From an uncultured Clostridia bacterium (GTDB lineage: Bacteria > Bacillota > Clostridia > Christensenellales > CAG-1252): a DNA stretch of 58,123 nt. The first letter of the stretch is position 1. Each line of letters opens with the position of its first letter. The translations under genes and the position numbers were made by a program. Below are positions 17,336 through 40,099 of the stretch, in pieces. Location: positions 1 to 58,123 of the forward strand of contig CALYRM010000004.1 of assembly GCA_945482995.1 (NCBI GenBank), read 5' to 3'. Under the pieces are notes generated by a model. The model was given only the letters and a program-made list of their open reading frames with translations, made no database searches and had not been told where the DNA came from.

Positions 17336-17343
17336 CTAATATT

Positions 17344-17377: not shown

Positions 17378-17384
17378 AACTTGT

Positions 17385-20300
17385 TTATGCGAAATAGCCG
17401 TTCGCCTTTCCTGTATAATTCGATTTACCTAATGTTACACCATTCGATTTTGCAGTATAGTTGTATGTGTACTTGGTATGCTTCAATTTTATACTTAAGA
17501 ATTCCTTTTCACTAGTCATTTCATAATGTGAAATGATTGTTCCGCTAACCGCGCTTGCGCCCGATAGGTTGAGATGAGATCCTGCCACCGTGGTGGTAAA
17601 CGTACCGCCTATTACCCCCGAACAATTAAGCGTGCCGTCCACAACAATTGTTACCGGCGAGTTCGGTTGATATACCTGCTTATTCAAGCGAGTATTTGAA
17701 GCAGAGAGGCTACCGCCGTAAGCCTTTGCTCCGTAATTTGTGTAAACGTTTGAATATGTTGCGTCATAACCTATGAGTCCGCCATTCGAGGATATATTAC
17801 ATACCGCGCCACGATTTATTGTCAAACTTGCCCCCGGCAAGAGTTTAAATTTTGAGTCAAGCGTGACAGTACTGCCTTCTCCCATAACTATGTTATAGTA
17901 TCCGGGAATGGGGATTTCTTTACCCTTAGTTTCCATGTCAACGCTTGCGATACTTACAGATATACTAATTGATATATTATTAGTCTTTACCGCGCCATAA
18001 GCGGTGATTGTGACTTTTCCTGTTGCTGGATCTAACATTTTTGTAAAAGCTCCATTTGTGGCATCTGTCGTTTCAAATAATCCACCTTGTCCAAACATTA
18101 GTAGGTCTCCGACAAACTCTTTATCCGAAGCGGTAATTGTGTAGTGAGCATTAAGTTTAGCACCATACGGAACGGTCAATTTTGCTTCGATATTAGCAAT
18201 CAGGAATTGACTAAATGGGAAAAACTCTTTATATACGGTATATGCAATAGTACCGCCGGGCCAATCCTTAATTTGCAAGGATTCGGTTCCCTCTGCGCCC
18301 GAATTTAGATATACCTCGCCACTTCCTGTGATAAAGCCTAAGCAATATAGCTTACCGTAAACATCGACATATCCGGTTGTCTCAATATCCATACAGCCAT
18401 ATGTTCCGGTTGTGTGTCCCGTGTTGGTAACCTGTCTACCGGATACGTTCAAACTGCCGTTTACGGTTAGGGTTGCGCCATTCATAATTTTGAGTGTGGA
18501 ATACGCACTACTTGGCGCACCGCCCGAGGCAACTGTAAGATTGATTGTGGTATCGTGAGTTGAGTCGTAAGGAATTAACAGCGTTACTCCCGATTTAACG
18601 GTTGCATCTCCGTATAGTCTTGTATTGTACTTAACTATTATCGTTCCGCTCGACATACTGCTCAACGCGCTTTCTAACGTCGTCAAGGTTGAACTTGAGC
18701 TCGTAATAACGCTCTTAATACTAACTGTGCAGGTCGATCCTGAACTTGGTAATTGATAATTCTGCGAGCTCATAGTTATCTTGGTTTTGTATACACCACC
18801 GTCCGTGAAGCTATTGCCGATAGAATATGTCAAACTGTAATTTGACGAATCTAATACAGCGCCGTTATATATGATAGCCGGAGTTATCGTCTTAGCATTT
18901 CCGTCATAGTCATAGTTCCAAGAAGTTTGTTCCAAAGATACGGTTGCCTTGGTAAGAACTAGTTGAACGGTCAAGTTAAGTGTATTGTAATTGTCGGGGT
19001 CTGCGTTGTAGGTTGCGTTATAAGCCTTAACGTCGCAAGTCGGAACAATACTTGGGGTATTCCAAGCAAAGCCACTATTTAGCGTATAGCTTGCAAGAGT
19101 CTTTGTCGGGCTATATACGCCTGTAAGATTATTGTGCGTAATACCTGTGTACGTACCCTTTTGCAATGTCAACGTTATAGTTACGGGATAATCGTTGTAA
19201 TTAACCTTATCGACATTGTAGTATGCAGAATAAACGGTCTTATTAACAACGGGTACAACGCTTGCGTCAACCCAATAATAGCCTGCACTTAATGTGTATG
19301 CAGATAATTGTTGTCCGCTATATACACCGCTTAGTGCAGTATGAGCGGCTACATTTGTATAATTTGCTTTTTCCAATGTTATTGTTATATTAAAGATATA
19401 ATCGTTATAGTTATCGGAATCTGCGTTGTATTTTGCACTATATGCGGTAACATCAACGCTCGGAACTTTTGTGGAATCCACCCAAGCATAATTTGCATTT
19501 AACGTATAACTAGCCAAAGCCTTATCGGGATTATATATGCCTGAGAAGCCCTCATGAGTGATATTTTGATAATCTGCCTTTGCAATGTTTAGCGTGATAG
19601 TCAAACTATAATCGTTATAGTTGACTGAATCCGCATTATAAACTGCATCATACTTATTTTGTTTTACTATTGGTTTCGTATCGCCTTTCACCCAAGCGAA
19701 GTTATTATCGAGTGCATAATCATTTAGAGTGCTATCGGGGTTATATGTACCTGATAATTCTCTATGCATTACGTTTTGATAATCTGCCTTTGCAAGAATT
19801 AATCTAATACTCAATGGATAGTCGTTATAGTTATCTCTATCGGTATTGTAGTATGCGGCATATTCGGTTACATTTACTGTCGGCAATGTATCAGGTGTAT
19901 TCCAATAATAATTTTCGTTTAACGAATATGACGATAGTTTCTTATTTGGATCGTACGTGCCTGCTAGTGCGGTGTGATTGGAAACATCGGTATGGTTTGC
20001 CTTTTCGATTGATAACTTAATCGTTAGGCTGTAATCGTTATAGTTTATCGAATCTGCGTTATAAATTGCAGGATATTCGCTCACCTTGACTGTTGGCGTC
20101 GTGTTTGCGTTTTTCCATCTAAACCCTGCACCTAACACATAATCCGACAGAGTTTTATTAGGATCATAGGTGCCTGACAATTCGTTGTGCGTGATATTTT
20201 GATAATCTGCTTTGTTTATTACAAGTTCAACTGTCATTTGACCATTGACAATATAATTGGTATCGTTATTTATTGCGGTAAAGGAATAACGACCTGCATT

Positions 20301-23300
20301 CTTGAATTCATTGTAATCACCGCTTAACGATAAAGCCATATTTACATTTTCGCCGGTGTAACTTGGATAGTAACACTTGACGGTTGAGGATAAATCCGAG
20401 CCGTTATAAGTATACTCTTGATAATCCCAAGTGAGTGAAACTTTCTTTGGATTTACAGTCAATACCGCATCATTGATTGTGATATTATAGTTATCGTTGT
20501 TAGCTCCCAAAATTGTAATTGTATAACTGTTTACGGCGCTACCTACTGTATAATCAGAACTAAATGTGAAATTACCAAAGCTATCGTTTTCAACGAGTCC
20601 TACTTGAGTATAGGTAAAATTAGCGGCGTCACCATATTCGATAGTCTTGTTGTCAACACTTATCACTAAATCTTTTTTTGCGATTTCCGCTGTTTGAGTA
20701 ACATTTTGATACTCGTAATTTTGGTCCACGTAGCTTGCGAACAATGTATATCTACCTGCATTTTTAAATACACTAGCGGTACCTTGGAATGAAACGTCCA
20801 TATTTAGCTTGTTTCCGTCGTAGGTTGTAAACGTTGCGCTAACCTCGCTTGCACGCTCTAAGCCGTTATAGGTATATTCGCCGATAACCCATTCTACTGT
20901 TACGGGGCGCTTGTTTAGAGTGAACAAGCCTGCGTTTACGGTAACTGCATAGTTATTATTTGGAGTGTATTCAATATTCAATGGATATGAGCCTACTGCT
21001 GTACCTTGCGTGTAAGTGAATGCTATGTTTGTATCAATTACATCACCATCAATTACGCCGATTACTTCATAAATAAATTCTACGTTTTCATCGCCGTAGG
21101 TTGCAACAACGTCTTGTACATTTATTTCAACAGCCTTTTTATTGATGGTTAAATTGGTTGTATTGTTCTTTAAAATATAGTTGGTATCGGCAACGGTTGC
21201 AACAAGCGAATATTCACCGCTTTTCTTAAATACTTTTGTTTCTCCCGAGGTAAATTCAATATTTGCCTCTTCTCTTTCTCCATTATAATTTACAAATATT
21301 GCCTTAACCGATTCGGATTGATCGAGTCTATTATAGATATAGCTATCTAGTGTTTCCCATGTCACACTTACTTCACGATGCGTACATGTCAATGTTGCGT
21401 TGGTGTATACAATTTCGTAATCGGAGTTTTGATAGCCGTCTACGGTGATTGGATAATCGTTCACCGGAGAACCCTTTGTGTAGTCGCAGGTATAACTTAA
21501 CGTACCCAAGCTGTCACCATCAAATAACCCCACTACTCTATGTGAAAATTCGGGAACGTTTTCGCCGTAGGTTAGATATAAAGAATCCACTATAACTTCA
21601 ACTCTTGCTTTGAGAATAGTCAAGCTCTTTTGTTTATCTTGAATGTCATAGTTGATTTCATCTACGCTTGAAGCGGTAACGTTATAGGTGCCTACGTGAT
21701 AAAAATCTGTATTATCGCCACACGCAAAGCTTATATCCATATATTTATATTCGCCGTTTGTTTGCATAAACTTGGCGGTAACCGTTTCGTCTTGCGTTGC
21801 ACCATTATAAGTATAGCTATCTTGGTAATCCCAAACTGCAGTAACGGACTTTTTATTTACTCTTAATATTGCGGAATCGTAAATAATGTTATAGTTGGAA
21901 TTGTTTAGATTTTCACCACTAATTATATAATCGCCTGTATTTGCATTCTTTACATAGTCGCAGATATAGTTAAGTGAACCCAAATATGACGGTGTTTCGC
22001 CGTCAACTAAGCCTACGATTTCGTGAGAAAAGCTCGGTATTTCGTCGCCATAGGTAATAACTCTATCTTCAAACACAATATGAACGTCCTTTGGAGCAAT
22101 GGTTATTGTCCTTTCAACGCCTATTAGCTCGTAGTTCTTGTCTTGGCTGTTTGCGGTAATAGTGTAAGTTCCCGCAGTTTTGAAGTCGGAGATTACGCCG
22201 TTTAGCTTGTATGACAAAACCAAGTTCGTATTTCTGCCGTCGTATCTTACGAATTTAGCATAAATGGTATTCGATTGAGCCTCTCCTGTGTAAGTATAGC
22301 TATCGCTATATACCCAATCAACGTTTACACTTTTCTTTTCAACGGAAAGCACCGCATCATTATAGGTAATATCATAGTTAGAGTTTGTCAATCCGGTTCC
22401 TTGCAACGGATATTTGCCTACCTCGCTACCCTTTGCGTAGTCGCAATCAAAGTTCAAAACACCTAAGCTTTCACCTTCGAGCAAACCCTCAATGCTATAC
22501 GTATAATTTGGAATATCGTCTCCATACGTAACTGTCACGTCGTCAATAGTGACGGTTGCGACAAGTTTTTCTATTTCCACTTGCAGAACTGCATTGGTAA
22601 TATTGTAATTTGTATTGCTGTAGCTTGCCAGTACGTTGTATACGCCTGCATCTTTAAAAACAGTACCGTTACCATTGAAAGCAATGCTTGCAACTGCAAG
22701 ATTTCCATTGATATCTGTAAACGTTGCAGAAATACTGTTTCCTTGGTCAAGTCCGTTATATGTGTAGCTTTCTTTAGTATTCCAAGTCAAATTAACTGTT
22801 TTGGGCAATACTTGGAACCATGCGCTTGTACTTGTTTGGAAATCGTAGTTCGGATTTCTCAAACCTGTCATTCTTACTGAGTACCTACCGGAATCACTAC
22901 CCTTTACGTATTCACAATTATATCTTGGCGTGCCTAGACTGTCACCCTCTAGCAACGAGCCTTTGGTTATCTTATAGCCAAATTCGGGAATATCATCACC
23001 ATAATATACGGTGTTATCGCAAACAACCTTAAATGACAATTCCATTTTTTTAACTGTGAGTATTCCAACTTCATAACTCGTTATATCGTAGTTTTTATTT
23101 GTTAAGCCACTCAATGAAATTGAATATTCACCAACAGACGAGCCTTTTGTATAGTTGGTTTCAAAACTGGCAATACCTAATGAATCGTTATTTAAAAGAT
23201 CGCCACATTCATAGCTAAAGTTCGGTATATCGTCGCCATAAACAACGGTTTGATCTGCTGCTCTAACTGTAATTGGTTTTGGTTCGACTGTCAATGTACC

Positions 23301-24548
23301 CTCTTCAAATATCAACTTATACAAATCACTTTCTAATTTTGTGATTAAAATAGCATAAGTTCCTACATCTGAGCCTACCTTATAATTGCAAGAATACTCT
23401 GCTTCGCCAAATACATTACTGTTTCTATTTCTTGTCGAATAGCTAAACGCAGGAAGTGGATCTCCGTATTTAATGGTAATATCATTAGCTTTAACATACA
23501 TAGAAGCCTTGTTGACAATAATGCTTATTGATTTTTCATCCTCTACATAGTCGCTACCGAAGCTTGACCTTATAACAGCTTTTACAGTGTGCTTGCCGAC
23601 AGTAAGACCTTCCAACAAAATTATTTTGTTAGCTCCATCATATTCCGAACCGTCTAGATACCACTTTATCGAATAAAATATATTTTGGAATTCGGTAAAA
23701 TTCACGCTTACGGTTACCGTCAAATCTTCCGCATATTCAAACGTATTGTCGGAGTTTTGTGTTTCAAGAGTTATACCCTTTAAATGAGCAACCTTTAAAT
23801 TTGCAAATATGTTCATATTCTCGGTTGCCGTTGCCTCGCTCATAATTATTTTACTATTATACTCGGAATCAGCGTACCACCCTTCAAGTTCAAGCCCTTC
23901 GGCAGTGAATTTTGATAGCGCTTTCAATGCGTCCGTTTCGCCTACGTTTATTTTATCGCCGATATAAATCTGTTTTTGCGATAATAGTTCGGTGCCATAG
24001 TAAAAGGATACAGTAGTAGCCTTTCTTTCATATTTAGCGGTAATTACGGTTTCTTTCTTTATTTGGTCAAAAGATGAATCCCAACCAATAAAATTATAAC
24101 CGTATCTCGTGGGCTCGGTCGGTGCAATAGCTGCTGTGTTGTATTCTACAAGTTGCTCGTCTTGACCATTAACTTGAAGTACCTTGCCGTCATAGTCGAC
24201 AAATTTAACCTTAAATTCCTTTGCTTTCCATACGGCATATAAAGTAATGGCTTCCCCTTTGTATTCGTTTTGCTCGAATACGCTGTTTTTGTTGCCAAAC
24301 TCGGTTATCCAATATCTAAAGATATATCCCTCTTTTTCGGGAATAAAATTACTTGGAGTTGGATGCCCGTCAACCTCAATTATGGCGTTTCCATCCTTGA
24401 ACACAACGTTTTCATAGGTAATCGTTTTATCATTATCGTCGTCATTTACATTAATGAAGCTACACGCAGTTAGAGCTAGTAGCAGCACTAAAACGATGGT
24501 GATAATCAAAGGAAGTAAAAGCTTCTTGTTGTTAATAGCGTTTTTCAT
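17385..24548 (-). CDS. Giant surface lipoprotein: InlB B-repeat-like units, MBG/YDG-type repeat array, six 70-aa repeats and a C-terminal uncharacterised module
   Basis: Uninterrupted 2405-aa ORF. Start trimmed to ATG 24548 (MKNAINNKKLLLPLIITIVLVLLLALTAC, lipobox LTAC), with AAGGAG upstream. GYIFRYW / GYNFIGW / LEGWY motifs are of the Listeria-Bacteroides repeat type. Many units follow the pattern TV.YGD.IP.F.Y...GL..GDSLG....Y.KGS.VG.Y. Confidence 0.85.
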   Translation of the reverse strand: MKNAINNKKLLLPLIITIVLVLLLALTACSFINVNDDDNDKTITYENVVFKDGNAIIEVDGHPTPSNFIPEKEGYIFRYWITEFGNKNSVFEQNEYKGEAITLYAVWKAKEFKVKFVDYDGKVLQVNGQDEQLVEYNTAAIAPTEPTRYGYNFIGWDSSFDQIKKETVITAKYERKATTVSFYYGTELLSQKQIYIGDKINVGETDALKALSKFTAEGLELEGWYADSEYNSKIIMSEATATENMNIFANLKVAHLKGITLETQNSDNTFEYAEDLTVTVSVNFTEFQNIFYSIKWYLDGSEYDGANKIILLEGLTVGKHTVKAVIRSSFGSDYVEDEKSISIIVNKASMYVKANDITIKYGDPLPAFSYSTRNRNSNVFGEAEYSCNYKVGSDVGTYAILITKLESDLYKLIFEEGTLTVEPKPITVRAADQTVVYGDDIPNFSYECGDLLNNDSLGIASFETNYTKGSSVGEYSISLSGLTNKNYDITSYEVGILTVKKMELSFKVVCDNTVYYGDDIPEFGYKITKGSLLEGDSLGTPRYNCEYVKGSDSGRYSVRMTGLRNPNYDFQTSTSAWFQVLPKTVNLTWNTKESYTYNGLDQGNSISATFTDINGNLAVASIAFNGNGTVFKDAGVYNVLASYSNTNYNITNAVLQVEIEKLVATVTIDDVTVTYGDDIPNYTYSIEGLLEGESLGVLNFDCDYAKGSEVGKYPLQGTGLTNSNYDITYNDAVLSVEKKSVNVDWVYSDSYTYTGEAQSNTIYAKFVRYDGRNTNLVLSYKLNGVISDFKTAGTYTITANSQDKNYELIGVERTITIAPKDVHIVFEDRVITYGDEIPSFSHEIVGLVDGETPSYLGSLNYICDYVKNANTGDYIISGENLNNSNYNIIYDSAILRVNKKSVTAVWDYQDSYTYNGATQDETVTAKFMQTNGEYKYMDISFACGDNTDFYHVGTYNVTASSVDEINYDIQDKQKSLTILKARVEVIVDSLYLTYGENVPEFSHRVVGLFDGDSLGTLSYTCDYTKGSPVNDYPITVDGYQNSDYEIVYTNATLTCTHREVSVTWETLDSYIYNRLDQSESVKAIFVNYNGEREEANIEFTSGETKVFKKSGEYSLVATVADTNYILKNNTTNLTINKKAVEINVQDVVATYGDENVEFIYEVIGVIDGDVIDTNIAFTYTQGTAVGSYPLNIEYTPNNNYAVTVNAGLFTLNKRPVTVEWVIGEYTYNGLERASEVSATFTTYDGNKLNMDVSFQGTASVFKNAGRYTLFASYVDQNYEYQNVTQTAEIAKKDLVISVDNKTIEYGDAANFTYTQVGLVENDSFGNFTFSSDYTVGSAVNSYTITILGANNDNYNITINDAVLTVNPKKVSLTWDYQEYTYNGSDLSSTVKCYYPSYTGENVNMALSLSGDYNEFKNAGRYSFTAINNDTNYIVNGQMTVELVINKADYQNITHNELSGTYDPNKTLSDYVLGAGFRWKNANTTPTVKVSEYPAIYNADSINYNDYSLTIKLSIEKANHTDVSNHTALAGTYDPNKKLSSYSLNENYYWNTPDTLPTVNVTEYAAYYNTDRDNYNDYPLSIRLILAKADYQNVMHRELSGTYNPDSTLNDYALDNNFAWVKGDTKPIVKQNKYDAVYNADSVNYNDYSLTITLNIAKADYQNITHEGFSGIYNPDKALASYTLNANYAWVDSTKVPSVDVTAYSAKYNADSDNYNDYIFNITITLEKANYTNVAAHTALSGVYSGQQLSAYTLSAGYYWVDASVVPVVNKTVYSAYYNVDKVNYNDYPVTITLTLQKGTYTGITHNNLTGVYSPTKTLASYTLNSGFAWNTPSIVPTCDVKAYNATYNADPDNYNTLNLTVQLVLTKATVSLEQTSWNYDYDGNAKTITPAIIYNGAVLDSSNYSLTYSIGNSFTDGGVYKTKITMSSQNYQLPSSGSTCTVSIKSVITSSSSTLTTLESALSSMSSGTIIVKYNTRLYGDATVKSGVTLLIPYDSTHDTTINLTVASGGAPSSAYSTLKIMNGATLTVNGSLNVSGRQVTNTGHTTGTYGCMDIETTGYVDVYGKLYCLGFITGSGEVYLNSGAEGTESLQIKDWPGGTIAYTVYKEFFPFSQFLIANIEAKLTVPYGAKLNAHYTITASDKEFVGDLLMFGQGGLFETTDATNGAFTKMLDPATGKVTITAYGAVKTNNISISISVSIASVDMETKGKEIPIPGYYNIVMGEGSTVTLDSKFKLLPGASLTINRGAVCNISSNGGLIGYDATYSNVYTNYGAKAYGGSLSASNTRLNKQVYQPNSPVTIVVDGTLNCSGVIGGTFTTTVAGSHLNLSGASAVSGTIISHYEMTSEKEFLSIKLKHTKYTYNYTAKSNGVTLGKSNYTGKANGYFA
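18951..20213 (-). repeat. Six tandem ~70-aa (~210-nt) coding repeats inside the 2387-aa lipoprotein gene
   Basis: Protein repeats follow KA(D/N)Y.N(I/V).H..L.G.Y.P...L..Y.L...(F/Y).W......P.V.V..Y.A.YN.D..NYNDY.L.I.L... The nucleotide period of about 210 nt is visible from the recurring aatcgttatagtt and ctgcgttgta strings. Confidence 0.85.
20214..23520 (-). repeat. Alternating MBG-type / YTYNG-type domain array (coding)
   Basis: About 9 alternations of units containing YGD.(I/V)P.F.(Y/H)...GL..G(D/E)SLG and units containing SYTY(N/T)G..Q......A.F. Boundaries are approximate. Confidence 0.7.
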
Positions 24549-24717
24549 ATTTTGCTCCTTATGTGACAGATTGGTTTGGTTGGTTTCAGATATGTAGCTC
24601 ATATCTATTTGTATTGATTAGTCCTTTTTTTGTATGTTTCACAAATGATTTGACTGTTTTGCCGTCGTGAATTGAATTGTGACTTAACAATTGCTATTTA
24701 TGGTATATCATGATTTT

Positions 24718-27918: not shown

Positions 27919-27927
27919 AGTCTAACC

Positions 27928-29601: not shown

Positions 29602-29603
29602 CG

Positions 29604-30347
29604 TTAATCCTCAATTTCGGACATAAATACTTGCGCCAATTTTTGATTGGGGTACTTTAATCTAAATTCTTCCATAGTTAGGGAAGTCTTTACTCTACCC
29701 TTTCCGATTATATATACTCTATCGCAGATTCTATCTAAGACGTCAAGGTTATGCGAACAGAAAAATACCGTATTTCCTTGATTTTTATAGTCTACCATAT
29801 ACTTCAAAAGCGCTTCTATTGTGGTTGCGTCAAGTCCCGTCAAGGGCTCGTCCAAAAGCCATAGCTTTGGACGGTGAATGAGAGAAGCCATTAAACAAAT
29901 TTTTTGACGCATACCGTGAGAATATGAAGAAATCATATTATAAATACTGTCGCCAAGCTTGAACTTTGATTCCATTTCGTCAATTCGCTCTTGACGAACA
30001 GCAACATCGACGTCATGTAGGTCGGCGATGAAATTTATGTATTCATAGCCTGTCATTTTGTCAAACATAGGTCTTGTATCGGGCACATAGCCTAAATTCA
30101 TTTTTGCATTTACAGCGTCGGTTTTTATGTTGTGTCCGCAAATAGTTATTTCGCCCTCGTTAAATGGAAAATAACCTGTCAAGCACTTGATTGTAGTTGA
30201 CTTTCCGGCGCCGTTTTTGCCCATAATGCCGACTATTTCACCGGCATAGCACTCAATATTTATATTTTCGATTGTGTATTCGGACGCTTTTCCATAACGC
30301 TTACACAAACCTTTGATTTCAACAATTTTTTCTCTTTCGTTGTTCAT
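29604..30347 (-). CDS. ABC transporter ATP-binding protein
   Basis: Walker A GKNGAGKST, Walker B LWLLDEP, H-loop CSHN. The signature motif is the variant SHGMRQK instead of LSGGQ. Confidence 0.9.
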   Translation of the reverse strand: MNNEREKIVEIKGLCKRYGKASEYTIENINIECYAGEIVGIMGKNGAGKSTTIKCLTGYFPFNEGEITICGHNIKTDAVNAKMNLGYVPDTRPMFDKMTGYEYINFIADLHDVDVAVRQERIDEMESKFKLGDSIYNMISSYSHGMRQKICLMASLIHRPKLWLLDEPLTGLDATTIEALLKYMVDYKNQGNTVFFCSHNLDVLDRICDRVYIIGKGRVKTSLTMEEFRLKYPNQKLAQVFMSEIED

Positions 30348-30355
30348 AAAACTCC

Positions 30356-30934
30356 CTAATAGTTGATTGTATATTTTGTATTAACTATATATCCTTTATA
30401 GTTATAATTTAATTCGATTTCGGTTAGTTGATTCCCACTCTTTTTTAGAGAAACGATTAAATCACTAACTTCGCTTTGTTCTGCATCTATAAACAAGCCT
30501 ACATTTTTCAATTTAAACTTATACGTTGTTATGGAATCACTAACGTTTACCTCGATTTTTCCATCCAAATCTTGCTCGCTTAGCGTCAAGGAATAATAGA
30601 GTTTGGTAAAGTATTCTGCTTTTGTAATAGTGCCCTCTCCGCTTTCGGTAACCAATTTATCGCCGAATAAATCGGGGTTAGGCTTGCTTACAGTGGTTGT
30701 GTAATTAACCTCGCCACCATTTACCGAATAAGTGGTGTTTTCTTGGCTTACCGTATTTCCGTTAGACTTTATGTCAAGTGTAAATATAGCGCCATTTGAC
30801 GAATTGGTTGATTTTAGAATTTCGCTTATTACGGCTAAATGATTATCCGCAGCGTTTTCGGTCGTACACCCTACAAGAAGGGTGATTACTAATATCGATA
30901 AAACCAATAATATTGCTAAAATATTCTTTTTCAT
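30356..30934 (-). CDS. Small lipoprotein of unknown function
   Basis: 192 aa with signal peptide and lipobox LLVGC (MKKNILAILLVLSILVITLLVGCTTE). AGGAGGG lies upstream. The start is 9 nt after the giant gene's stop. Confidence 0.7.
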   Translation of the reverse strand: MKKNILAILLVLSILVITLLVGCTTENAADNHLAVISEILKSTNSSNGAIFTLDIKSNGNTVSQENTTYSVNGGEVNYTTTVSKPNPDLFGDKLVTESGEGTITKAEYFTKLYYSLTLSEQDLDGKIEVNVSDSITTYKFKLKNVGLFIDAEQSEVSDLIVSLKKSGNQLTEIELNYNYKGYIVNTKYTINY

Positions 30935-30943
30935 ACGTCCCTC

Positions 30944-33900
30944 CTAGAATGTTTGCTTGATACCGAAGTAAGCTAATATGGTGATTACATTAAGAATTTC
31001 CATCGCCTTTTGCGCATTTTGTCCGCGTTTTGCAGTGTTTGCAACAGCTTCAACATCTTCAATCAAGCCCGATAACAACTCTTCGGCTTGTTTTAATACC
31101 TCATTATATCTATCTACTTTCCTAACGTTTTCACGATCTCCAAGTGCAATTCCTTTTAGCTCTTCTCTTATCTCATCAACTGTTGCCCATTTGTCGGACG
31201 ACTCAATACCTGCAAGCTTTCCTTGAATGCTTGTAAATATTTCGTCATAATTTGCTATTACCTTGATTGTAAAGCTTACGTCAAACTTATAATGAACGGT
31301 ATCGCTGATTTTCGGTTTTACAATGTATTCGCCGACTGTCGATATTGTCTCGACTTCGTTCTTGTCTTCGTTAGTTAAGGCATACGAAACTTGTAAATGC
31401 TTGTATTTACTCGGCAATTCAAACTTAATATCCAATCTGTCGCCTAAGACGTATACGCCGTTGTCGGTGAAACCTACTGCAGTAAACAATTCCGATAAAT
31501 CAATCTCTACGATTTGCCAAGTAAATGTTTTTGTACCCGAATAGTTACTGTCATCGATTGTTGCGACAAGAGTAAACTTACCAATTTCGCCGTTATCTTC
31601 CGAACATGTAATTTCATAATCGACGGTTAGCCCATCTATCGCGCACTCTGCATAAATCGAATTTGCAAACGGATCGTATTCTGCAACTCCGTTTTCGGGT
31701 AAACCTACTGCAACGATTTTGTCACTAATATCCTTTTTGTTGACTGTGACGGTGTAATCGGTAACTGTATCAGATTTGAATTCAAATGCATATTCGTGTT
31801 TTATCATAATTTTTACGTTATATACACCTGCGTTGATGATTTGCTCGACTACATTTCCGTCTACGTCGGTGATTCCCACACCAAAACTATTTTCGTCTGC
31901 GCCCTTTAAATTGCCCTCGATATTCTTAGTCCAATCAAATACCGCTATTGGCTCGCCGTCGTTATAGGTGTATTCGGTTAGCATATTTACAACGGTAAGT
32001 TTTGGTTTTGTGACTGTTAGCGTTGCGTTAACTACTGTAATTTCGTAGTTGTGATTTGATGCAATTATTGATATCGTGTGGTTTCCTGTAATAAAGTAAG
32101 CGTCAAAGTTGTCGGCTGTCATTGTTACGTTGCCATTTGTGAAGATTACGACAATTTCGATATCAATTTGGTCACCATCGACTATGCTACCCTCAGTTAC
32201 TTTATAACCATCGTTTGTGATAAGCTCCACGACTTCATCAAACGTGTTGGCGTTTTCAGCGGTCTTGTCATTCAAGGTCAACGTAATTGGTCTTGCCTTG
32301 ATTATATAAGTTGAAGAGTCAGCCGAAGTGTAGCTTATTCTATTGATTTTGTAATTTTCGTTGCCACAAGCGGTAGCCGTTATCTTATAGCTACCTACGC
32401 CGTTCCCTTGCTCTCTATTAATTGTGATTATATCGCTGAAACTATCATCGAAAGCGTATGAATAGTTATTCGGTATTGTCGGAACAATTTCCACTGCACT
32501 TTCGCCGTAAACCATTTCAAAATCGGGAATAGAAAATTCGATTTCTCTTGCGGTTATCGTATAAACTGCGTTTACAAAGGTAATATCATAGTTTGTATTA
32601 ACACAAGTACCGCTAATTACATATTCGCCCTTTTGCAAACCGTCTTGCTTTTCAAGAGTATACAACTCGCTGATTTGGTCTCCATCTGCCCCTTGATCGT
32701 TGGTTGTTGCGGTAAGTTGCAACAATTCATCGCCATAGATAGATGTTTTGCTGTCTATCATAATTGTGATTGGCTTTGGTAAAATGGTATAGGTTGCATC
32801 GTTTGCAGTTATCGTATAGTTATTTGAAATGCAATTGACTGTAATTGCATAACCGCCCGCAAGTGTACCGCTTTCACGCGTTGCCGAAACTATTGATTTT
32901 AGCGTGTCAACACCGGGCAATGCTTCTTTTACTGTAAGAGTGATTTCACTATCTGCACTACCATAATAGCTAAACGTGTCCGCCACAGAAACGGTAAGCG
33001 TCATTGGCTTGATTGTGTATTTGTATACTTGTTCGGTTATCGAATAGTTTGCACTGTCTGCACCTACAAGACTATTTGCAATAATTTGCTTGTCGCCTGC
33101 ATTTATTGATTCGCCAACTGCCAAGTTTACTTCAACCTCATCGCTTTCAATCATGTTCATAATTGTACAGGTAGGTTTTTGAGTATAGCCGTTATAGATT
33201 AATTCGTTTGTCGACCATTTAAGCTCGACCTCGCGTTTTTCTACAGTGTAAACATAATTGAAGTTTACGCCCGAAATGTTTACCGTCAAATTATATTTAG
33301 CGGCATCTTTGACTTGATATTCGGTATTTGAGTTTACGGTAAACGTAAAGTCAACCGCTTTACCGCTTTGAGCGACAACCGCACTTACATTGAATATGAC
33401 GTCTTCGCCGTCATAAACCTTTGATAAGCTCGGGACACCCAAAGAAATTGTATAGTAATCTTCACTTGTTACAACTTCAAAGGGAACTGCTGCCGTCGTA
33501 ATAACGTAGTTGTGATTTTTTGATACCGCTTTTAGACTATAAGTGCCTACTGTCATTGGGATGTTTATTTGAACAACGCCGTTGTCAACGGTACCAATCT
33601 CGTTATTACCATTAAGGATAATATAACGAACCTCATCACTCGATAAATCACTGCTTGCATAATTTATAGTCAAGGTTTGCTCAACCTTAGCAAGCATTGC
33701 ATTTGTTGCGGATAATTCGATTTCTATTGGCTTAGCGTTTATGGTATATGTGAAACTATTGTTCTTGGGAAGTGTGTAGTTATGAGAAGCGACGCCCAAA
33801 ATTTCTTTTACAAAAGCAATCTTTTCGCCTTGTTCGATACATTCAAAGTCGCCAAGTACCAAAGCTATTTCGTCGCCATTAACAACATTTTCGGCATTAA

Positions 33901-36900
33901 CGGTTGGTTTTTGTTCTTGTCCGTTGTATACCAATTCGCCAACATGCCAGCTTAACGCAAGCACTCTTGCGTTGACCTTGTATATGTAGCTATATTCGGT
34001 CTCGCCGTCAATAACCACTTTTACAATATAATCGTGAGCGTTTTTGATTTCGCTCACTTGCTCGCCATTTACAAGCAATGATACTGCAACTTTATTGCTA
34101 TCAACCATTTCCCCGCTTTCGGTGATTCTTACCGTTACATTTACACCAACAGCATTGCCGTCATACTCTTTGTGATTGGTTTCGCTATCAAAAGCAACGT
34201 CTAACGTATAATAATTGTTATCTTCTACTATTGTCAAAGTGCCATCAACGCTTGTAGCATTGTAGTTGCTGTCGGTGCAAACTGCCTTTACTGTATATTC
34301 GCCAGATGCTACTTCACCAAGCACGGTAATAAAGCCAGATACGACCTTGAATACAAGCTCGTTTGAATCGTTGTATACCTCATAAGAGATATTCTCCTTT
34401 GCGATATTTTCGCTAGCGGTTGACGTGAATATAACGATTTCTCCTGTCTTGATAGAAGAAATCATCATGTCCGAATGTTGATCAACCGTCATGACAGCAT
34501 CCTTTGGATAAATCTTGAAAGCGTGAGTCTTGGTTTCGTCAAGGGTATAATCGGTATTGGTTATAGCTATGGTTATATTATAGTCGCCTGCGTTTATAGG
34601 TTGAACGTCAAATCTATATGAAGCTGTATCACCTGACAAAACTCCAACCAATTCAATTTCGGGAATATGAGCATTTCCATCATAGGTCGCTACCGTATTA
34701 ACCCAATTAACGCTTATGGTCTTTGGATTGATTGTGTATACTGCCGAATATGTGTAACCCTCAACCTCAATCGTAATATTATAAACCTTAGCGGCTTTTA
34801 TTTGCATATCACTTCCGTTCACTTTTACAGTGGAATCTATTACCATTTCGGTTTCGGCATTCTTAACAATTGGTACAATGACAACCTCTTCGCCATCATA
34901 TACCTTAGAAAAGTCTGTCAAGCCAAGATCAAAAGTGTAATAGTTTTCGTTTTCTACTACGGAATATAAATTATCTCCTGTTTGTTTGAGCGAATAATTA
35001 GGATTATCCGTTGTAGCTTCTACCGAATAATCTCCAACGGTTATTGTATTGTCAGCTACAAGTGTTACAACTCCGTTTATTGCGGTTGCGACAAGCTCGC
35101 CGTTTCTTAATATGTTATAACCTACTGCTATTATAACACCGTCGCTTAGCGTTGCACTTATGTCAACGGTCGTATTTGCTTTTGATAGCATTACGTTCTT
35201 TGCCGATACCGTAACGGTAATTTCTTTTGCGGTAATAGTATAAGTGCCGTTGGTTACTTGCAAAGAGTAATACGACGAAACAGTATTGTCGGTTTTCTCT
35301 GCAGTAACCAAGTATGAGCCGACATTATCTCCGTTAGCCTTTACCAACCTGAAAACGTCGTCCTTGGAGTCGCCAACAAGTAATCCATCAACGCTTGCGG
35401 TCAAGGTCGCTAAACTGTCGCCGTAAACTGATGTTTTATTGTCAATGATTACGGTTAATGCCTTTTGAGATATTCCGCCATATACCGTGTTGACTGTATA
35501 TGGTATATCTAAAACGCCATCAACAACAAAATTAGCGGTGTAGGTAAACGTTGCTTGAATGTTGCCGTTGACTACCTGATAATCGCCCTTGTTTTGTAGC
35601 GTTACATCAACTGTCTTTCCGTCAATTGTGGTTGCTAGAGCGGTAACTGCCGTATCACCATAGGTAACATTGCTAGGAGTTAAAACGGCTACTATTTGTT
35701 TGTAGCTATCTAAACCGCAGTCAAGCGTGGATATTTTGTCAGTTACATAACTTGTTTGTTCGCTTTGCAAGCCATTCGTGATAGCGGTATAACTTGCATA
35801 TAGACTTTGCGCAGTCGATAATAAGTTATCGCTTGTGCAAGTTTTTAAAGAATTTAAGTCCTCAATATATTTTGTCAATTCGGCTTTTTGAATATAAACG
35901 GTTTGAGTAAAATTGCAGTTGTACGTTTCGCACCCTAATTTCACAGTTTGTACATAGCTATCTGTTAATCCTATCGCATTAAGAACGATATTTTCTGTTT
36001 TGCCGTCAAAGAAGTGAACGACAGCGCTAACTGCGATATCGCTTACAATAGTTCCGTCTGCGGCTTCCACTCTTTCATATACCGATTCGGAATTAACTTC
36101 GATTCTTGATGGAATTGAAATTGAAACAACAGACAAAGAATCCCATTCGTTTGCGCTGCGCGCAATTTTATCAAGCTCGGCGGATAAATACGCGATAGGT
36201 TGATTGATTTCGGCTTCAACCTCGATTTGTCCCTTTTGGTCGGTAATATAGTAAACGCCGTTGACGTCGACCTTAACTCCGACTGTCTCGCTCTGGATGC
36301 TCAATGTTCTATAAACAATTAACTTACCGTCTACAAGCTTTGCAAAGCTTCCGTGCATTGATTGATTGACCTCAATTGTCGGCTCGACTCCCGTTGCGTA
36401 GTCCATAGTAAAGGACGATACAACAAATTCGGTTCCCGACGACAAGCTATAGGATTGATATGTTAGCCCTTGTTCGATATTGCTCAATTCGTCCGCTCTT
36501 AAACCGCTGATTTTTGCAACCAAGGTTAAGCCGACTTTATTGTTGTTATTTCCGCTTTCTGCGCCTAATTCCAACACCTTTGTCAAGGTTGCATTTCTAG
36601 AAACTTGAATCGTTGCGCCGTCAACTGTCGACTGAACGATACCTGCAAACGAACCTATTATGTTGATTGTTCCGTTATTAATTAACATACCGGTAGCTTC
36701 AAAGTTAGAATTTTTAAGCATATCAACGGTAGGATATTGTTTGCCTGCCATTGTTGTTTGTAGAAGTCCTTCCACAACATATAAACCACCCAAAATATCA
36801 AGCGTGCCGTTTTCGGCAATAGTCATTTTTGAACCGGGTAAAAGCATATATTCACGGCTTTCGGGTACAACCAATTTGGCACCGTCATTAATTATGTAGT

Positions 36901-39900
36901 TTAGGGTATAGGGCAAACCCAATACCATCTCGTTTGAACCAAAGCTTTCCAAATAGAATTCACCGAGGGTTACTTCGCCGTTAATGCTTAGTGTTGTTAC
37001 GCCACTATCTTCAAGGTGTGTCGTACCCATTTGTACGTTTACGCTCTTAGCAGTGTACGAAAAATCAATTGAAGAGTTAGCACTCAACCAATATAGCGAA
37101 CCGTCGCCACCTTCAACTCTTTCTTCGACAGCATTCACAATGGTAATATCTTGTGTGGTAATAGAACCAAAGAAAAATAAAGAAGTTGAACCAATTAATT
37201 TTGCTTTGTGGTTTATTGTATAATCACATTGAATGTTGACTAAAGAGTAGTTATAAAACGGGAAGTTGTTTGCCTCATAATACGCTAGCGTGATTGTACC
37301 GCCCGAATAGTTGTTGACCAAGAAAGGCATTCTAATTACGGTGTTTTCGTTTGCAATTATTCTACCGTCACCCTTTATAAGTCCCACTACGTCCAAATAA
37401 CCATTGTCGGTTAAAAGGATAGTACCGTTGTTTATGATTTGAGAATATGCGCCCGAAGTATGTCCTTGAGCGGATTGATCGGGGTAGTGTTGAACTGCGC
37501 CTAACGTAAATCTACCTTGAATGGTAAGGGTAACGCCCTCTTGAACTGTTAAGGTATGATATAAATACTTACTCTCATTTGCCCAAGAAACGCTTGTTCC
37601 GGCCGTAGTTCCCGTACCCAAGGCAAAGCCTATCTCATCGTTTGCACTAAATGGTACTAAAATCTCGATATTTGTGGGGATTGTAAGATTTTCGGTTATT
37701 TCTTCGTTATTTATTAGTGTTATTTTTCTTTCAACGTCTCTTGCCAAAACGGCATCTTTGAGTGAAGTATAAAAATCAAAATCATCCTTCGCAACATAGT
37801 AATTGGGTTTTTGCATAACAGCCACTATTCTCGTGTCACCTATAACTACAAAGGAATAGCTTGCCTCGGTGGATGCTAAACTGCCATTTATAATCCAACC
37901 ATAAAATACATATCCATCGTTCGGAGTTGCGCTCAATTCAAGCAGAGAGCCAACCTTCAACGTTGAGCCTGTTTCAACATCAACGCCCTCGGTTAGGGCA
38001 GTTATAATGCCACTTTCCGTGAATCTAACCTCGGAATTAACAACAGCCTCTCCAACATAGTGCGCAACAGCGGATATTGCAAAAGAATCGCTTGTTTCAT
38101 CTACAAATGAATCGGGCTGTGTAACTTTAATGTAATAAATGTATATCGTTTGTGAGCCTGCAACGGTTAGATCGATTTCTTTTTTTCTCCAACCGTGATT
38201 TCCATGGTTAGCGCTCTGCTTATCAAATTCGCCGTATGCTTCGGCAATACCATAATTATCGATAAGCGCGGTATAATCGGTACTTTCGTTTATGTTAAGC
38301 TCTTCACCTACTGATAACAAGCAATAGCTATATTCGCTAATGTCCATAAAGTAGTTGAAAGCAAACAAGCCTGACTCATTAACGGTGAAACTGATTTTTG
38401 AAGTAGATGAAATTATTCCCCTATTGCCTGCAACATATGAAGCGCGGTCGGTTGAAACAGGTGAATAATAATAGTATGGATGAGTTGAGTCGTTGGCAAT
38501 GGTGATATTGTCGGTCAATAAAATATCTTGTTCTATGGTGTTTTTGCTTATAAGTTTAATGGTATACGTAAAGTCAACGCTCTTATAGTTGCCATCCTTT
38601 GAATATCGGAATGTAAAGGTGTGGTCTTTGTCCAATTCGCCAAAGGAATAAATATAATTGTTATTACTCTCTATTATATTTGAAATAACCGATACGCCAT
38701 CTACAAACAATTCGCATCTTTCCCCACTTTTAAGAGCAGGTGCCGAAAGCGCAACGTCAAACTTTTCGGTATAGTCTAATTCAAGAATACCGCCGTTTTC
38801 TATCGTTTGCCGTGAAGTATATCCGCCTTTCCTTAAAATTAGCTCAGTATAGTTTTGAGGAATTACCAATAATTGCTTAAAGTCGACGTTCAAAGTTGCG
38901 TCTGCATTAACTTGAAACTTGACTTCATAAGATTCAACGCCTTCTTCGAATGTTTCATTCACGCTTATGTTGCAAGTGAAGTTATAAGCAAATATTCTTA
39001 CAAGATTTCCGTTGTCATATGGTTTGAAATAAAAAATTGTAGCTAAATATTTGGGAACATTGTTTGTTTGGGAAATACTTATTTTTTCGCCCTTTGAATC
39101 GAAGTAGTAAATTTCACCCAGCGTGCTATCAAAATTTGACGTGAGCGTTACATATTCAACTGTAGTTGATATAGATTTGATTTGAAACTCTGCCGTTTCT
39201 TCATTACCCGATGATTGCGGTTTATAGTTTATCGTCACAACGTCAAAGGCATAATTCAAAACAAATGCGCCACTTGTAGAAGTGCCTAAGATATTGAATG
39301 ATGCGTCCGAATTGGAAATAGTTCCACAAACTTGCTTTCTATTTGAGGACGCGTTGTAGCATTGAGCGGTGAACGAAAGATATTCAACGTTTTTGGTTAT
39401 CAATCTTATTGAGCTTGGGGATAACCTGTCTGCACTTTGTGAAACAAAGCCTTGAACACCGTCTGTGTCTGTTGTGCTCCAACCATTCTCATCGGGTAGA
39501 TAGTAAACTCCTTCATAGGCACTTTCAACCCAACCTACCGATATAACTAAGTTTTTGGTGATCGAATTGCCAGATATGATGTACGAAAGCGTTACGTTAT
39601 TAACACCGCAAACAACAGGCAAGGTTGCATTATTTTTGTCTGCATTGAGCGCAACAGCGTTTTGGTTTACCAAAATAGAAAGTCCGAGAGTATCGTCTAC
39701 TACACCGTCAAAGCGTAGTTCTAGACTTTCGGTTTCACCAAAGACAAAGTATTCGTCACCCTTTTGGTCGACCTTGTTTTCTCCTTGATAAATAGAAAAT
39801 CCCGGCATACCGGCTTCTGCAAAAGCTACTTCTTTTACACAAATTGCAGTTAAGCCACCCATTAAAAGTGTAAGTGTGAAAATCGTGAATAATAATGTAA

Positions 39901-39931
39901 GTCCTATAAACAAAAATTTCGTTTTTTTCAT
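30944..39931 (-). CDS. Giant (2995-aa) secreted or surface protein with MBG/YDG-type repeat arrays and an internal uncharacterised module
   Basis: Uninterrupted 8988-nt ORF with AGGAGA upstream. Signal peptide MKKTKFLFIGLTLLFTIFTLTLLMGGLTA. Repeated KVYDGE.. and YNG..Q.P units. Helical C-terminus ending in a short hydrophobic stretch (MEILNVITILAYFGIKQTF). Confidence 0.85.
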   Translation of the reverse strand: MKKTKFLFIGLTLLFTIFTLTLLMGGLTAICVKEVAFAEAGMPGFSIYQGENKVDQKGDEYFVFGETESLELRFDGVVDDTLGLSILVNQNAVALNADKNNATLPVVCGVNNVTLSYIISGNSITKNLVISVGWVESAYEGVYYLPDENGWSTTDTDGVQGFVSQSADRLSPSSIRLITKNVEYLSFTAQCYNASSNRKQVCGTISNSDASFNILGTSTSGAFVLNYAFDVVTINYKPQSSGNEETAEFQIKSISTTVEYVTLTSNFDSTLGEIYYFDSKGEKISISQTNNVPKYLATIFYFKPYDNGNLVRIFAYNFTCNISVNETFEEGVESYEVKFQVNADATLNVDFKQLLVIPQNYTELILRKGGYTSRQTIENGGILELDYTEKFDVALSAPALKSGERCELFVDGVSVISNIIESNNNYIYSFGELDKDHTFTFRYSKDGNYKSVDFTYTIKLISKNTIEQDILLTDNITIANDSTHPYYYYSPVSTDRASYVAGNRGIISSTSKISFTVNESGLFAFNYFMDISEYSYCLLSVGEELNINESTDYTALIDNYGIAEAYGEFDKQSANHGNHGWRKKEIDLTVAGSQTIYIYYIKVTQPDSFVDETSDSFAISAVAHYVGEAVVNSEVRFTESGIITALTEGVDVETGSTLKVGSLLELSATPNDGYVFYGWIINGSLASTEASYSFVVIGDTRIVAVMQKPNYYVAKDDFDFYTSLKDAVLARDVERKITLINNEEITENLTIPTNIEILVPFSANDEIGFALGTGTTAGTSVSWANESKYLYHTLTVQEGVTLTIQGRFTLGAVQHYPDQSAQGHTSGAYSQIINNGTILLTDNGYLDVVGLIKGDGRIIANENTVIRMPFLVNNYSGGTITLAYYEANNFPFYNYSLVNIQCDYTINHKAKLIGSTSLFFFGSITTQDITIVNAVEERVEGGDGSLYWLSANSSIDFSYTAKSVNVQMGTTHLEDSGVTTLSINGEVTLGEFYLESFGSNEMVLGLPYTLNYIINDGAKLVVPESREYMLLPGSKMTIAENGTLDILGGLYVVEGLLQTTMAGKQYPTVDMLKNSNFEATGMLINNGTINIIGSFAGIVQSTVDGATIQVSRNATLTKVLELGAESGNNNNKVGLTLVAKISGLRADELSNIEQGLTYQSYSLSSGTEFVVSSFTMDYATGVEPTIEVNQSMHGSFAKLVDGKLIVYRTLSIQSETVGVKVDVNGVYYITDQKGQIEVEAEINQPIAYLSAELDKIARSANEWDSLSVVSISIPSRIEVNSESVYERVEAADGTIVSDIAVSAVVHFFDGKTENIVLNAIGLTDSYVQTVKLGCETYNCNFTQTVYIQKAELTKYIEDLNSLKTCTSDNLLSTAQSLYASYTAITNGLQSEQTSYVTDKISTLDCGLDSYKQIVAVLTPSNVTYGDTAVTALATTIDGKTVDVTLQNKGDYQVVNGNIQATFTYTANFVVDGVLDIPYTVNTVYGGISQKALTVIIDNKTSVYGDSLATLTASVDGLLVGDSKDDVFRLVKANGDNVGSYLVTAEKTDNTVSSYYSLQVTNGTYTITAKEITVTVSAKNVMLSKANTTVDISATLSDGVIIAVGYNILRNGELVATAINGVVTLVADNTITVGDYSVEATTDNPNYSLKQTGDNLYSVVENENYYTFDLGLTDFSKVYDGEEVVIVPIVKNAETEMVIDSTVKVNGSDMQIKAAKVYNITIEVEGYTYSAVYTINPKTISVNWVNTVATYDGNAHIPEIELVGVLSGDTASYRFDVQPINAGDYNITIAITNTDYTLDETKTHAFKIYPKDAVMTVDQHSDMMISSIKTGEIVIFTSTASENIAKENISYEVYNDSNELVFKVVSGFITVLGEVASGEYTVKAVCTDSNYNATSVDGTLTIVEDNNYYTLDVAFDSETNHKEYDGNAVGVNVTVRITESGEMVDSNKVAVSLLVNGEQVSEIKNAHDYIVKVVIDGETEYSYIYKVNARVLALSWHVGELVYNGQEQKPTVNAENVVNGDEIALVLGDFECIEQGEKIAFVKEILGVASHNYTLPKNNSFTYTINAKPIEIELSATNAMLAKVEQTLTINYASSDLSSDEVRYIILNGNNEIGTVDNGVVQINIPMTVGTYSLKAVSKNHNYVITTAAVPFEVVTSEDYYTISLGVPSLSKVYDGEDVIFNVSAVVAQSGKAVDFTFTVNSNTEYQVKDAAKYNLTVNISGVNFNYVYTVEKREVELKWSTNELIYNGYTQKPTCTIMNMIESDEVEVNLAVGESINAGDKQIIANSLVGADSANYSITEQVYKYTIKPMTLTVSVADTFSYYGSADSEITLTVKEALPGVDTLKSIVSATRESGTLAGGYAITVNCISNNYTITANDATYTILPKPITIMIDSKTSIYGDELLQLTATTNDQGADGDQISELYTLEKQDGLQKGEYVISGTCVNTNYDITFVNAVYTITAREIEFSIPDFEMVYGESAVEIVPTIPNNYSYAFDDSFSDIITINREQGNGVGSYKITATACGNENYKINRISYTSADSSTYIIKARPITLTLNDKTAENANTFDEVVELITNDGYKVTEGSIVDGDQIDIEIVVIFTNGNVTMTADNFDAYFITGNHTISIIASNHNYEITVVNATLTVTKPKLTVVNMLTEYTYNDGEPIAVFDWTKNIEGNLKGADENSFGVGITDVDGNVVEQIINAGVYNVKIMIKHEYAFEFKSDTVTDYTVTVNKKDISDKIVAVGLPENGVAEYDPFANSIYAECAIDGLTVDYEITCSEDNGEIGKFTLVATIDDSNYSGTKTFTWQIVEIDLSELFTAVGFTDNGVYVLGDRLDIKFELPSKYKHLQVSYALTNEDKNEVETISTVGEYIVKPKISDTVHYKFDVSFTIKVIANYDEIFTSIQGKLAGIESSDKWATVDEIREELKGIALGDRENVRKVDRYNEVLKQAEELLSGLIEDVEAVANTAKRGQNAQKAMEILNVITILAYFGIKQTF
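33005..35240 (-). repeat. Three ~250-aa super-repeats inside the 2995-aa gene (coding)
   Basis: Each copy has an Ig-like unit (..NG(E/N)..(V/I)(A/G)T..NGVV.....TVG.YS(V/L).A), then NYYT(F/L) .. (S)KVYDGE(E/D)V, then a (L/V)(S/N/K)W.....(Y)(N/D)G..(Q/H).P unit ending NY(T/S)(L/I). Boundaries are approximate. Confidence 0.65.
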
Positions 39932-40099
39932 GAATAATTTTCTCCTGACTAATAAAACATAATATTATATTTTATTAGTTGCACGTTAGTTGTACGCGCG
40001 TGCGTGTATATATAATATATGCGTGAAAAATGACCAAGACAAAAAATAGGCAGTATCGCATTCAACAAAAAAAGAATACCGCCTAAGCAAAATCAGGAT

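Follow-up and report, generated by a model that had tools for sequence, protein, structure and literature searches.

An ABC-2 transporter with a probable dedicated extracytoplasmic partner is inherited with giant adhesin-like proteins in uncultured gut Clostridia and other Firmicutes

In the nitrous oxide reductase assembly machinery NosDFY(L) (PDB 7O0Y and related entries), an ATP-binding cassette (ABC) ATPase of the ABC-2 class works with an ABC-2 permease that carries an extracytoplasmic beta-helix protein, and a small lipoprotein is a further partner. FtsEX, acting with PcsB, CwlO, RipC or EnvC, is an ABC pair that moves nothing and switches an extracytoplasmic enzyme. LptC is a bitopic partner whose N-terminal helix sits in the LptB2FG transporter and whose extracytoplasmic domain extends the machine outward. 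In the gliding Bacteroidota, GldAFG combines an ABC-2 transporter with a large accessory extracytoplasmic protein and is tied to the giant adhesin SprB, and in the type I secretion systems (T1SS) of RTX adhesins (LapA with LapBCE, SiiE) an ABC transporter is genetically coupled to a giant adhesin. Here, we describe a locus that resembles each of these systems in part. It lies in a 58,123-nucleotide stretch of an uncultured Clostridia bacterium (contig CALYRM010000004.1, assembly GCA_945482995.1), which we call the window. The invariant core of the locus is an ABC ATPase, a 12-transmembrane (12-TM) ABC-2 permease and a protein of about 1000 aa, inherited together with one or two genes for giant surface proteins.

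The locus consists of six genes, all on the minus strand. G1 (30944..39931) encodes a 2995-aa giant, G2 (30356..30934) a 192-aa lipoprotein with the lipobox LVGC (Cys23), G3 (29604..30347) the ABC ATPase of 247 aa, and G4 (27928..29601) a 557-aa ABC-2 permease, a fused 6+6-TM protein of 12TM_1/ABC_tran_2-like type. G5 (24718..27918) encodes the 1066-aa core partner, which is made up of an anchor helix, a string of Big_2 domains and a C-terminal domain, and G6 (17385..24548) encodes a 2387-aa giant lipoprotein with the lipobox LTAC (Cys29).

We examined the conservation of this arrangement starting from the permease, which has 136 detectable relatives in a word-indexed search. Scanning a single genome for each GTDB species gave 123 loci (referred to by L numbers), and 80 of them, from 80 species-level genomes, were taken with 10-kb flanks; permease identity among these goes down to 27%. 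All of the genomes are metagenome-assembled genomes (MAGs). They come from uncultured gut Clostridia, many of them Christensenellales-like, and from MAGs labelled Bacilli, Mollicutes or Acholeplasmatales, and the nearest relatives are Christensenellaceae MAGs with 65-70% permease identity. A copy identical to G4 is present in assemblies from at least two sequencing runs. The bins of L014, L036, L073, L080, L010 and L011 are labelled Parasutterella, Bacteroides/Bacteroidaceae, Butyrivibrio, Subdoligranulum or Ruminococcus; mis-binning or mislabelling of the contigs probably accounts for this, and the named taxa are unlikely to be true hosts.

In 71 of the 75 loci with room for it, the next gene after the permease encodes a G5-like protein of 950-1160 aa, and the gap has a median of 3 nt. 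The four exceptions are L016 and L018, which are re-ordered with G5 present, L008 (a 4-kb contig), which has no G5 match, and L076, which has only a short G5-like open reading frame (ORF). By a strict rule the ATPase is the neighbour of the permease in 69 of 75 loci; the remaining six have it within about 0.5-0.8 kb or re-ordered. We counted as a giant any product of at least 1500 aa or one cut by a contig end. By strict criteria, 50 of 76 loci have a giant beside the core, and in several that seem to lack one the G1/G6-like genes are split or shorter; as a background, a length of 1500 aa is attained by only 2 of the 499 other ORFs in the flanks. When all flanking ORFs were clustered, only the permease, G5, the ATPase and the giants were common across clades. 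Because it recurs in about 70 other species, the arrangement is far beyond chance, and the sequence-only reading of this DNA, which had proposed a dedicated module and not a chance neighbourhood, holds on this point.

The ORF order in L016 and L018, both labelled Mollicutes, is permease, a G5-like fragment of about 250 aa, ATPase, full-length G5 and a G1-type giant. Extra tandem G5-like ORFs occur elsewhere, as a second full-length copy in L069 and as a short fragment beside a full-length copy in L047 and L078.

A reverse test started from the other end of the module, by scanning metagenomes with the domain shared by the giants (the tip domain, see below) as found in a four-sequence G6-type subgroup; it covers G6-type giants. 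The scan gave 38 loci, many of them labelled human gut. In each of the 33 informative loci the gene just upstream of the giant is G5, with the permease present too wherever the flank reaches it; in the other five the upstream DNA is shorter than 5.5 kb and lies wholly within the giant. Furthermore, the permease clades obtained by average-linkage clustering match the classes of giants: the clade of the window goes with G1-type giants, a second clade with a third class, and two clades with G6-type giants. In the window and in L001-L003, unusually, a G6-type giant stands behind a module of the G1-associated clade. The MAG UMGS1170 (URNP01) contains two paralogous ABC-G5 modules, L007 and L055, with different giant types: a G1-type giant and a lipoprotein lie upstream of one, and a G6-type giant downstream of the other. 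Taken together, the ATPase, the ABC-2 permease, G5 and the giants that bear the tip domain form a conserved, co-diversifying module.

The lipoprotein G2 stands outside the core. It matches nothing in Pfam, NCBIfam or the PDB, NosL included in the latter, and an iterated hidden Markov model (HMM) found its family in 13 of the 80 loci, with a lipobox in all except one miscalled ORF. Wherever the contig allows, all 13 have a G1-type giant directly upstream of the ATPase. G2 is therefore an accessory of the G1-type giants located there. The lipoprotein-ATPase-permease triplet had been proposed as the unit; since G2 occurs only in those 13 loci, the triplet is a lineage-specific elaboration, and the conserved unit is ATPase-permease-G5 plus a giant. 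The expected co-occurrence of the ABC genes with giants was thus borne out, with a different unit.

G5 had been counted among the large proteins that the transporter might serve. Its position directly 3' of the permease in nearly all loci, and its constant size and architecture, mark it instead as the transporter's tightest partner, and more probably a partner than a cargo. An exhaustive HMMER search of 1.84 billion proteins found 404 representatives of its C-terminal domain (residues 535-1066; 24721..26316). Among the 150 best matches listed, nearly all full-length proteins are about 950-1160 aa long with the domain at the C-terminus, and every name given by the sources for G5 relatives is 'hypothetical protein'. 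The first 40 residues are among the better-conserved parts of G5 and contain a hydrophobic helix (residues 8-26; 27841..27897) with a near-invariant Pro. Because this helix is conserved and most orthologues lack an AXA-type signal-peptidase cleavage site, it is probably an uncleaved, retained signal anchor.

An AlphaFold2 model of G5 (predicted local distance difference test, pLDDT, of 77) shows a string of Ig-like domains at residues ~36-535 and the separate C-terminal domain. The string matches Big_2 in Pfam, and S-layer and other Ig arrays in Foldseek. Since the Foldseek result for full-length G5 was swamped by Ig arrays (S-layer proteins, contactins, NUP210), we predicted the C-terminal domain on its own, which gave a pLDDT of 60 and a predicted TM-score of 0.71. 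Its best Foldseek matches are all right-handed beta-helices, namely pectin methylesterases, pectate lyases and phage tailspikes, at E = 0.045 and TM-scores of 0.2-0.3. With a model of this confidence and matches this weak, a beta-helix fold is plausible but not established. Thus, of the earlier description of G5 as a Big_2 plus beta-helix protein, the first half stands and the second is weakly confirmed.

Searches by sequence placed neither G5 as a whole nor its C-terminal domain in a known family. Full-length G5 gave nothing significant in PDB sequence and profile searches. The C-terminal domain had no Pfam match even at E<=10, no match with a 43-sequence profile in the PDB, which includes the NosDFY entries, and no relationship to the tip domain in a profile-profile comparison. 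Across the 43 sequences (30-66% identity) it has 27 invariant columns, many of them polar. Q146-D147, R209, R243-E244-F245, N252, W360, T366, W383-K384 and GGG.NY are among the invariant positions, and the motifs are YGNG, QDN, NGR..R, REF, W..TSY, DWK and GGG.NY. This invariance suggests a catalytic or specific binding site in the domain.

We next consider the transporter itself. G3 belongs to ABC_tran (PF00005, E = 1.7e-28 in Pfam) and carries GKNGAGKST, LWLLDEP, YSHGMRQ (signature YSHGM) and CSHN, with Walker A, the Walker B glutamate, the signature and the H-loop intact. Its first PDB matches are the nucleotide-binding domains of ABCA3, ABCA4, ABCA1 and ABCA7, followed by TM_0544 and NosF (E = 4e-30 for NosF). 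Judged by its motifs and nearest relatives, G3 is predicted to be a catalytically intact ATPase of the ABCA/DrrA/NosF-like, ABC-2 type V class. The sequence of G4 contains about 12 hydrophobic segments and no large loop. Each half opens with an L-x-K-(K/E)-x-K type motif, and the protein carries the motif TNTFCATN(I/V)SRDG. It scores below the gathering score for ABC2_membrane_5 and ABC_tran_2 (20 vs 25 bits), and it has no curated NCBIfam match and no PDB sequence match. A precomputed PF09847 (12TM_1) assignment is recorded for G4 and many homologues, and relatives carry PF09847 or PF16949.

The sequence-only reading had asked whether the ABC genes match a known drug or bacteriocin exporter family. 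At curated thresholds they match none, nor do they match Gld, Nos, FtsEX or T1SS families. The best NCBIfam model for G3 is drrA (TIGR01188, E = 4e-52), at 177 bits against a cut-off of 312. For LanFEG-type lantibiotic or bacteriocin immunity (TIGR03740) G3 scores 127 of the required 310 bits, and the loci share no bacteriocin-type gene; there are further sub-threshold matches to lantibiotic-protection and phenol-soluble modulin (PSM)-export families. GldA is the second-best model (E = 3e-51) at 175 bits against 403. Unlike GldAFG with SprB, the locus has no GldF/GldG-type or type IX secretion system genes, Pfam scans of the six products show no auxiliary-component family, and the phylum and envelope are different. 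FtsE scores 90 of 265 bits, and FtsX is a 4-TM, type VII (MacB-like) protein, whereas G4 is a 12-TM ABC-2 permease; no hydrolase domain is recognised in G5. The T1SS family also scores 90 bits, against 693. A T1SS consists of a type IV exporter, a membrane-fusion protein and an outer-membrane channel, and its substrates carry C-terminal signals, whereas here the transporter is of the ABC-2 class, the giants bear N-terminal Sec or lipoprotein signals, and no membrane-fusion or TolC-type gene is recognised in the locus or conserved in its relatives.

Two comparisons come closer in design. NosDFY(L) has a similar part list, and the resemblance is one of parts and architecture only. G5 has no similarity to NosD, and G2 has none to any solved chain; here the 12 TM segments of the permease are fused in one protein, G5 has a probable membrane anchor and a long Ig stalk, copper or nitrous oxide reductase genes are absent, and the clients would be giant adhesins. 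A role like that of LptC would fit the conserved, Pro-containing N-terminal helix of G5. However, LptB2FGC is a type VI and not an ABC-2 transporter, beta-jellyroll domains are missing here, these are MAGs of Firmicutes with no outer-membrane evidence, and no homology was detected.

The giants themselves are repeat proteins. G1 has an N-terminal signal peptide, four MBG_2 matches (82 bits) and Flg_new_2 at 24.2 bits against a cut-off of 23.6, and G6 has eight MBG_2 stretches (266 bits) and three of Flg_new (59 bits). Both therefore exceed the gathering scores for MBG/Flg_new repeat surface proteins and were marked as adhesin-like. PDB searches with either gave nothing significant, and neither contains a toxin domain recognised by Pfam, NCBIfam or PDB searches. 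As the sequence-only reading had noted, none of the large proteins of the cluster has LPXTG near its C-terminus or a Pfam match to SLH or choline-binding domains. Of the anchors that it proposed instead, the lipobox of G6 is confirmed, and the N-terminal helix of G5 probably serves as one. G1 ends in a helical region and then a hydrophobic tail (30947..31006), a putative stop-transfer anchor that lies below the Kyte-Doolittle threshold for a TM segment in the window's protein; nevertheless, the hydrophobic stretch and basic tail are conserved in 12 of the 12 G1-type relatives seen. G6-type giants are mostly lipoproteins, and full-length orthologues stand behind G5 in 27 loci. At L121 13297..23213, on the contig of L001 from the closest Christensenellaceae MAG, G5 is followed by a gene whose called product has 6032 aa, compared with the 2387 aa of G6.

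G1 and G6 share a Gly-rich domain of about 390 aa, which we refer to as the tip domain. BLASTP aligned residues 742-1111 of G1 with residues 1993-2347 of G6, and an iterated HMM places the domain at residues ~736-1120 of G1 (36572..37726) and ~1976-2360 of the 2405-aa ORF of G6 (17523..18677). Across 41 loci, each sufficiently complete giant has a single full copy, and the domain is found in all three classes, G6-type, G1-type and the third class; the copy in L023 is split over two adjacent ORFs. Within the window it is present in G1 and G6 only. What sets these giants apart from MBG/Flg_new adhesins in general is that this domain matches nothing in Pfam or the PDB. It lies near the C-terminus in G6-type giants and in the N-terminal third of the window's G1. 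Since it is far in sequence from the membrane anchor in both topologies, with an N-terminal lipid in the G6-type and a C-terminal helix in the G1-type, the data fit a functional tip on a repeat stalk.

The gene calls and signals of the locus agree with its description as a compact cluster. The ORFs confirm six co-directional genes with spacers of 9 (G1-G2), 8 (G2-G3), 2 (G3-G4), 9 (G4-G5) and 169 nt (G5-G6), and a GGAG-type Shine-Dalgarno sequence precedes each start. The longest ORF of G6 (17385..24602) would encode 2405 aa; an ATG at 24548 follows AAGGAG at the same place where the orthologues begin, which gives the 2387-aa product and the 169-nt spacer after G5. A 17-bp hairpin (17342..17379), common to the cluster and a convergent plus-strand gene, is the sole convincing terminator, and a hairpin scan of 17000..36900 found minus-strand stems within the cluster of only 5-6 bp, all in coding sequence. 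The AT-rich region of 168 nt upstream of G1 (39932..40099, minus strand) is the presumed promoter region, and a promoter scan did no better than on shuffled sequence. The spacing of the genes suggests that G1-G6 are co-transcribed.

How might such a module work? The reading that we favour, tentatively and at somewhat less than an even chance, is that the locus is a dedicated cell-surface apparatus in which an ABC engine, together with its extracytoplasmic partner G5, acts on giant adhesins. An export function had been suggested for the transporter, and this is unlikely for the giants: each carries a Sec or lipoprotein signal, and proteins of 2000-3000 residues could hardly pass through an ABC-2 permease, so they would cross the membrane by the Sec route. 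G5 would be held in the membrane by its conserved N-terminal helix and would project an Ig-like stalk bearing an enzyme-like or binding-type C-terminal domain. G3 and G4 would then be an engine and not a conduit for the giants, with ATP binding and hydrolysis passed through the permease to G5, by analogy with NosFY-NosD, LptB2FG-LptC and FtsEX with its wall hydrolases. The ABC part of the Nos machinery is reportedly a mechanical energiser and not a conduit (Müller et al., Nature 2022). G5 could act on the giants or on the surrounding wall to mature, thread, position or release them, and G2 would be an add-on for the G1-type giants upstream of the ATPase. A more specific version, that the engine deploys, holds, matures or releases giant adhesin fibrils recognised through the tip domain and is a new ATP-driven surface machine in Firmicutes, seems to us rather doubtful. 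With the same reserve, such a machine might be seen as the Firmicutes counterpart of T1SS/LapG or Gld/SprB control, defined by two new domain families.

Several points weigh against a dedicated engine of this kind. We infer the contact between G4 and G5, and any interaction of G5 with the giants, from sequence features. The model of the G5 C-terminal domain is of low confidence and its beta-helix matches are weak, and neither Pfam nor PDB profile searches showed sequence similarity of G5 to NosD, LptC or the partners of FtsX. Most ABC-2 transporters truly export lipids or glycans, so that a substrate may be transported here as well. Relatives with the ABC genes and no adjacent giant are rare and do exist, in about four to six loci with both flanks visible (L023, L030, L032, L047). 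The reverse test is limited to a G6-type subgroup, and every genome is an uncultured MAG.

The main alternative, which we nevertheless regard as unlikely, is that G3 and G4 are a true exporter of a lipid-linked glycan, a teichoic-acid-like polymer or a lipid, that G5 is an extracellular polysaccharide-active enzyme (esterase, lyase or hydrolase) which processes that polymer or the wall, and that the giants bind the exported polymer or carry it as a decoration. Transporters of the ABC-2/type V class typically export glycopolymers or lipids, and the nearest relatives of G3 are the ABCA lipid exporters. All fold matches of the G5 C-terminal domain, weak as they are, are to carbohydrate-active beta-helices (pectin methylesterase, pectate lyase, tailspike depolymerases), and its invariant QDN presumably recalls the QD(T) motif of CE8 esterases. 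In addition, a Wzy_C (O-antigen ligase-like) polytopic protein is encoded upstream of G1 (40784..42250, minus strand; Pfam), and a Wzy_C-like gene lies beside the module in 8 of the 80 loci, in several clades (L011, L036, L046, L053, L065, L073, L076, L079). That link covers only about 10% of the loci, however, and the Wzy_C protein may be an occasional accessory or there by chance. The clustering of flanking ORFs from the 80 loci found no glycosyltransferase or other enzyme travelling with the module, and no polymerase or other glycan-synthesis gene is conserved with it. Export would also leave unexplained why the lineages of the module track the classes of giants.

A contact weapon is distinctly improbable. 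The giants would here be contact-dependent effectors or toxins directed at neighbours or the host, with the ABC-2 transporter and G5 serving for self-protection or delivery. The same broad ABC-2 class does give immunity to lantibiotics and other membrane-active agents, in keeping with the sub-threshold matches of G3 to lantibiotic-protection and PSM-export families, and the giants are diverse and the modules co-diversify with them, as effector and immunity pairs often do. But the absence of toxin domains from G1 and G6 speaks against it, as does a hallmark domain that is conserved and internal or near-terminal where a variable C-terminal toxin tip would be expected. Both giants are tethered to the membrane of the producer, and no small immunity-type gene stands behind them. 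PADLOC gave generic ATPase matches for G3 and none for the other five proteins, a result that also offers no candidate for anti-phage defence.

Finally, an ordinary drug or bacteriocin pump of DrrAB or LanFEG type, standing next to surface-protein genes by chance, is highly improbable and, given the conservation data, close to refuted, because the drrA model and other generic ABC families are the best matches of G3 at scores far below the curated cut-offs, the permease matches no curated family, the gene gaps are 2-9 nt, and the linkage to G5 and the giants holds in about 70 species, in both search directions and with co-diversification.

The rest of the window is ordinary chromosome, with a gerA operon and genes for MnmA, TilS, HPRT, the CCA-adding enzyme, RmuC, PEPCK and a two-component system; the window has no tRNAs and no Rfam matches. 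The gerA-type spore germination operon (7670..11322, plus strand; GerA, a 378-aa ORF without a Pfam match, and GerAC) indicates a spore-forming host. Converging on the terminator of the cluster, the plus-strand ORF at 16007..16873 encodes LuxS (S-ribosylhomocysteinase, residues 3-145) and a NUDIX hydrolase domain (157-272) as one fusion protein. Two other large minus-strand ORFs, at 11463..15602 (1379 aa, Big_3) and 2645..7186 (1513 aa, CBM_X2), are not part of the module, since they lack the tip domain. Between the Wzy_C gene and G1 lies a minus-strand ORF (40100..40534) of 144 aa, in which about 2-3 segments are hydrophobic; family searches gave nothing for it, and none of the related loci had a flagged homologue. 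The MscL homologue at 42580..43140 (minus strand) is long (186 aa), and its Pfam match stops at residue 127, leaving a C-terminal extension.

Tandem-encoded giant extracellular proteins of Firmicutes have been reported before, as Giant1-5 of Apilactobacillus kunkeei (PMC12863079). These are likewise multi-thousand-residue repetitive surface proteins encoded in tandem, and the abstract of that report mentions no ABC-2/G5 module. We searched the literature for the MBG domain, for giant proteins with ABC-2 transporters, and for PF09847/12TM_1, and found no description of the module; a giant-gene preprint that we considered concerns unrelated Omnitrophota systems. With no match to the families considered either, beyond the generic classes of ABC-2-class ATPase and MBG/Flg_new repeat protein, the earlier impression that this is not a described system stands. 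The module, in which an ABC transporter probably has a dedicated extracytoplasmic partner as in known systems, brings two unclassified domain families, the C-terminal domain of G5 and the tip domain.

Giant surface proteins are common in gut Firmicutes, and how they are handled after Sec and retained without sortase, SLH or choline-binding anchors is largely unexplained. The module is a testable candidate for this handling, a small gene set found in Christensenellales-like Clostridia and in Bacilli- and Mollicutes-labelled MAGs, many of them from the human gut. The two domain families could enter the family databases and help to find the system elsewhere. If the transporter is a true exporter, an unrecognised surface polymer would be tied to adhesin display; if it is an engine rather than a pump, the concept known from NosDFY, FtsEX and Lpt would be extended to adhesin biology.

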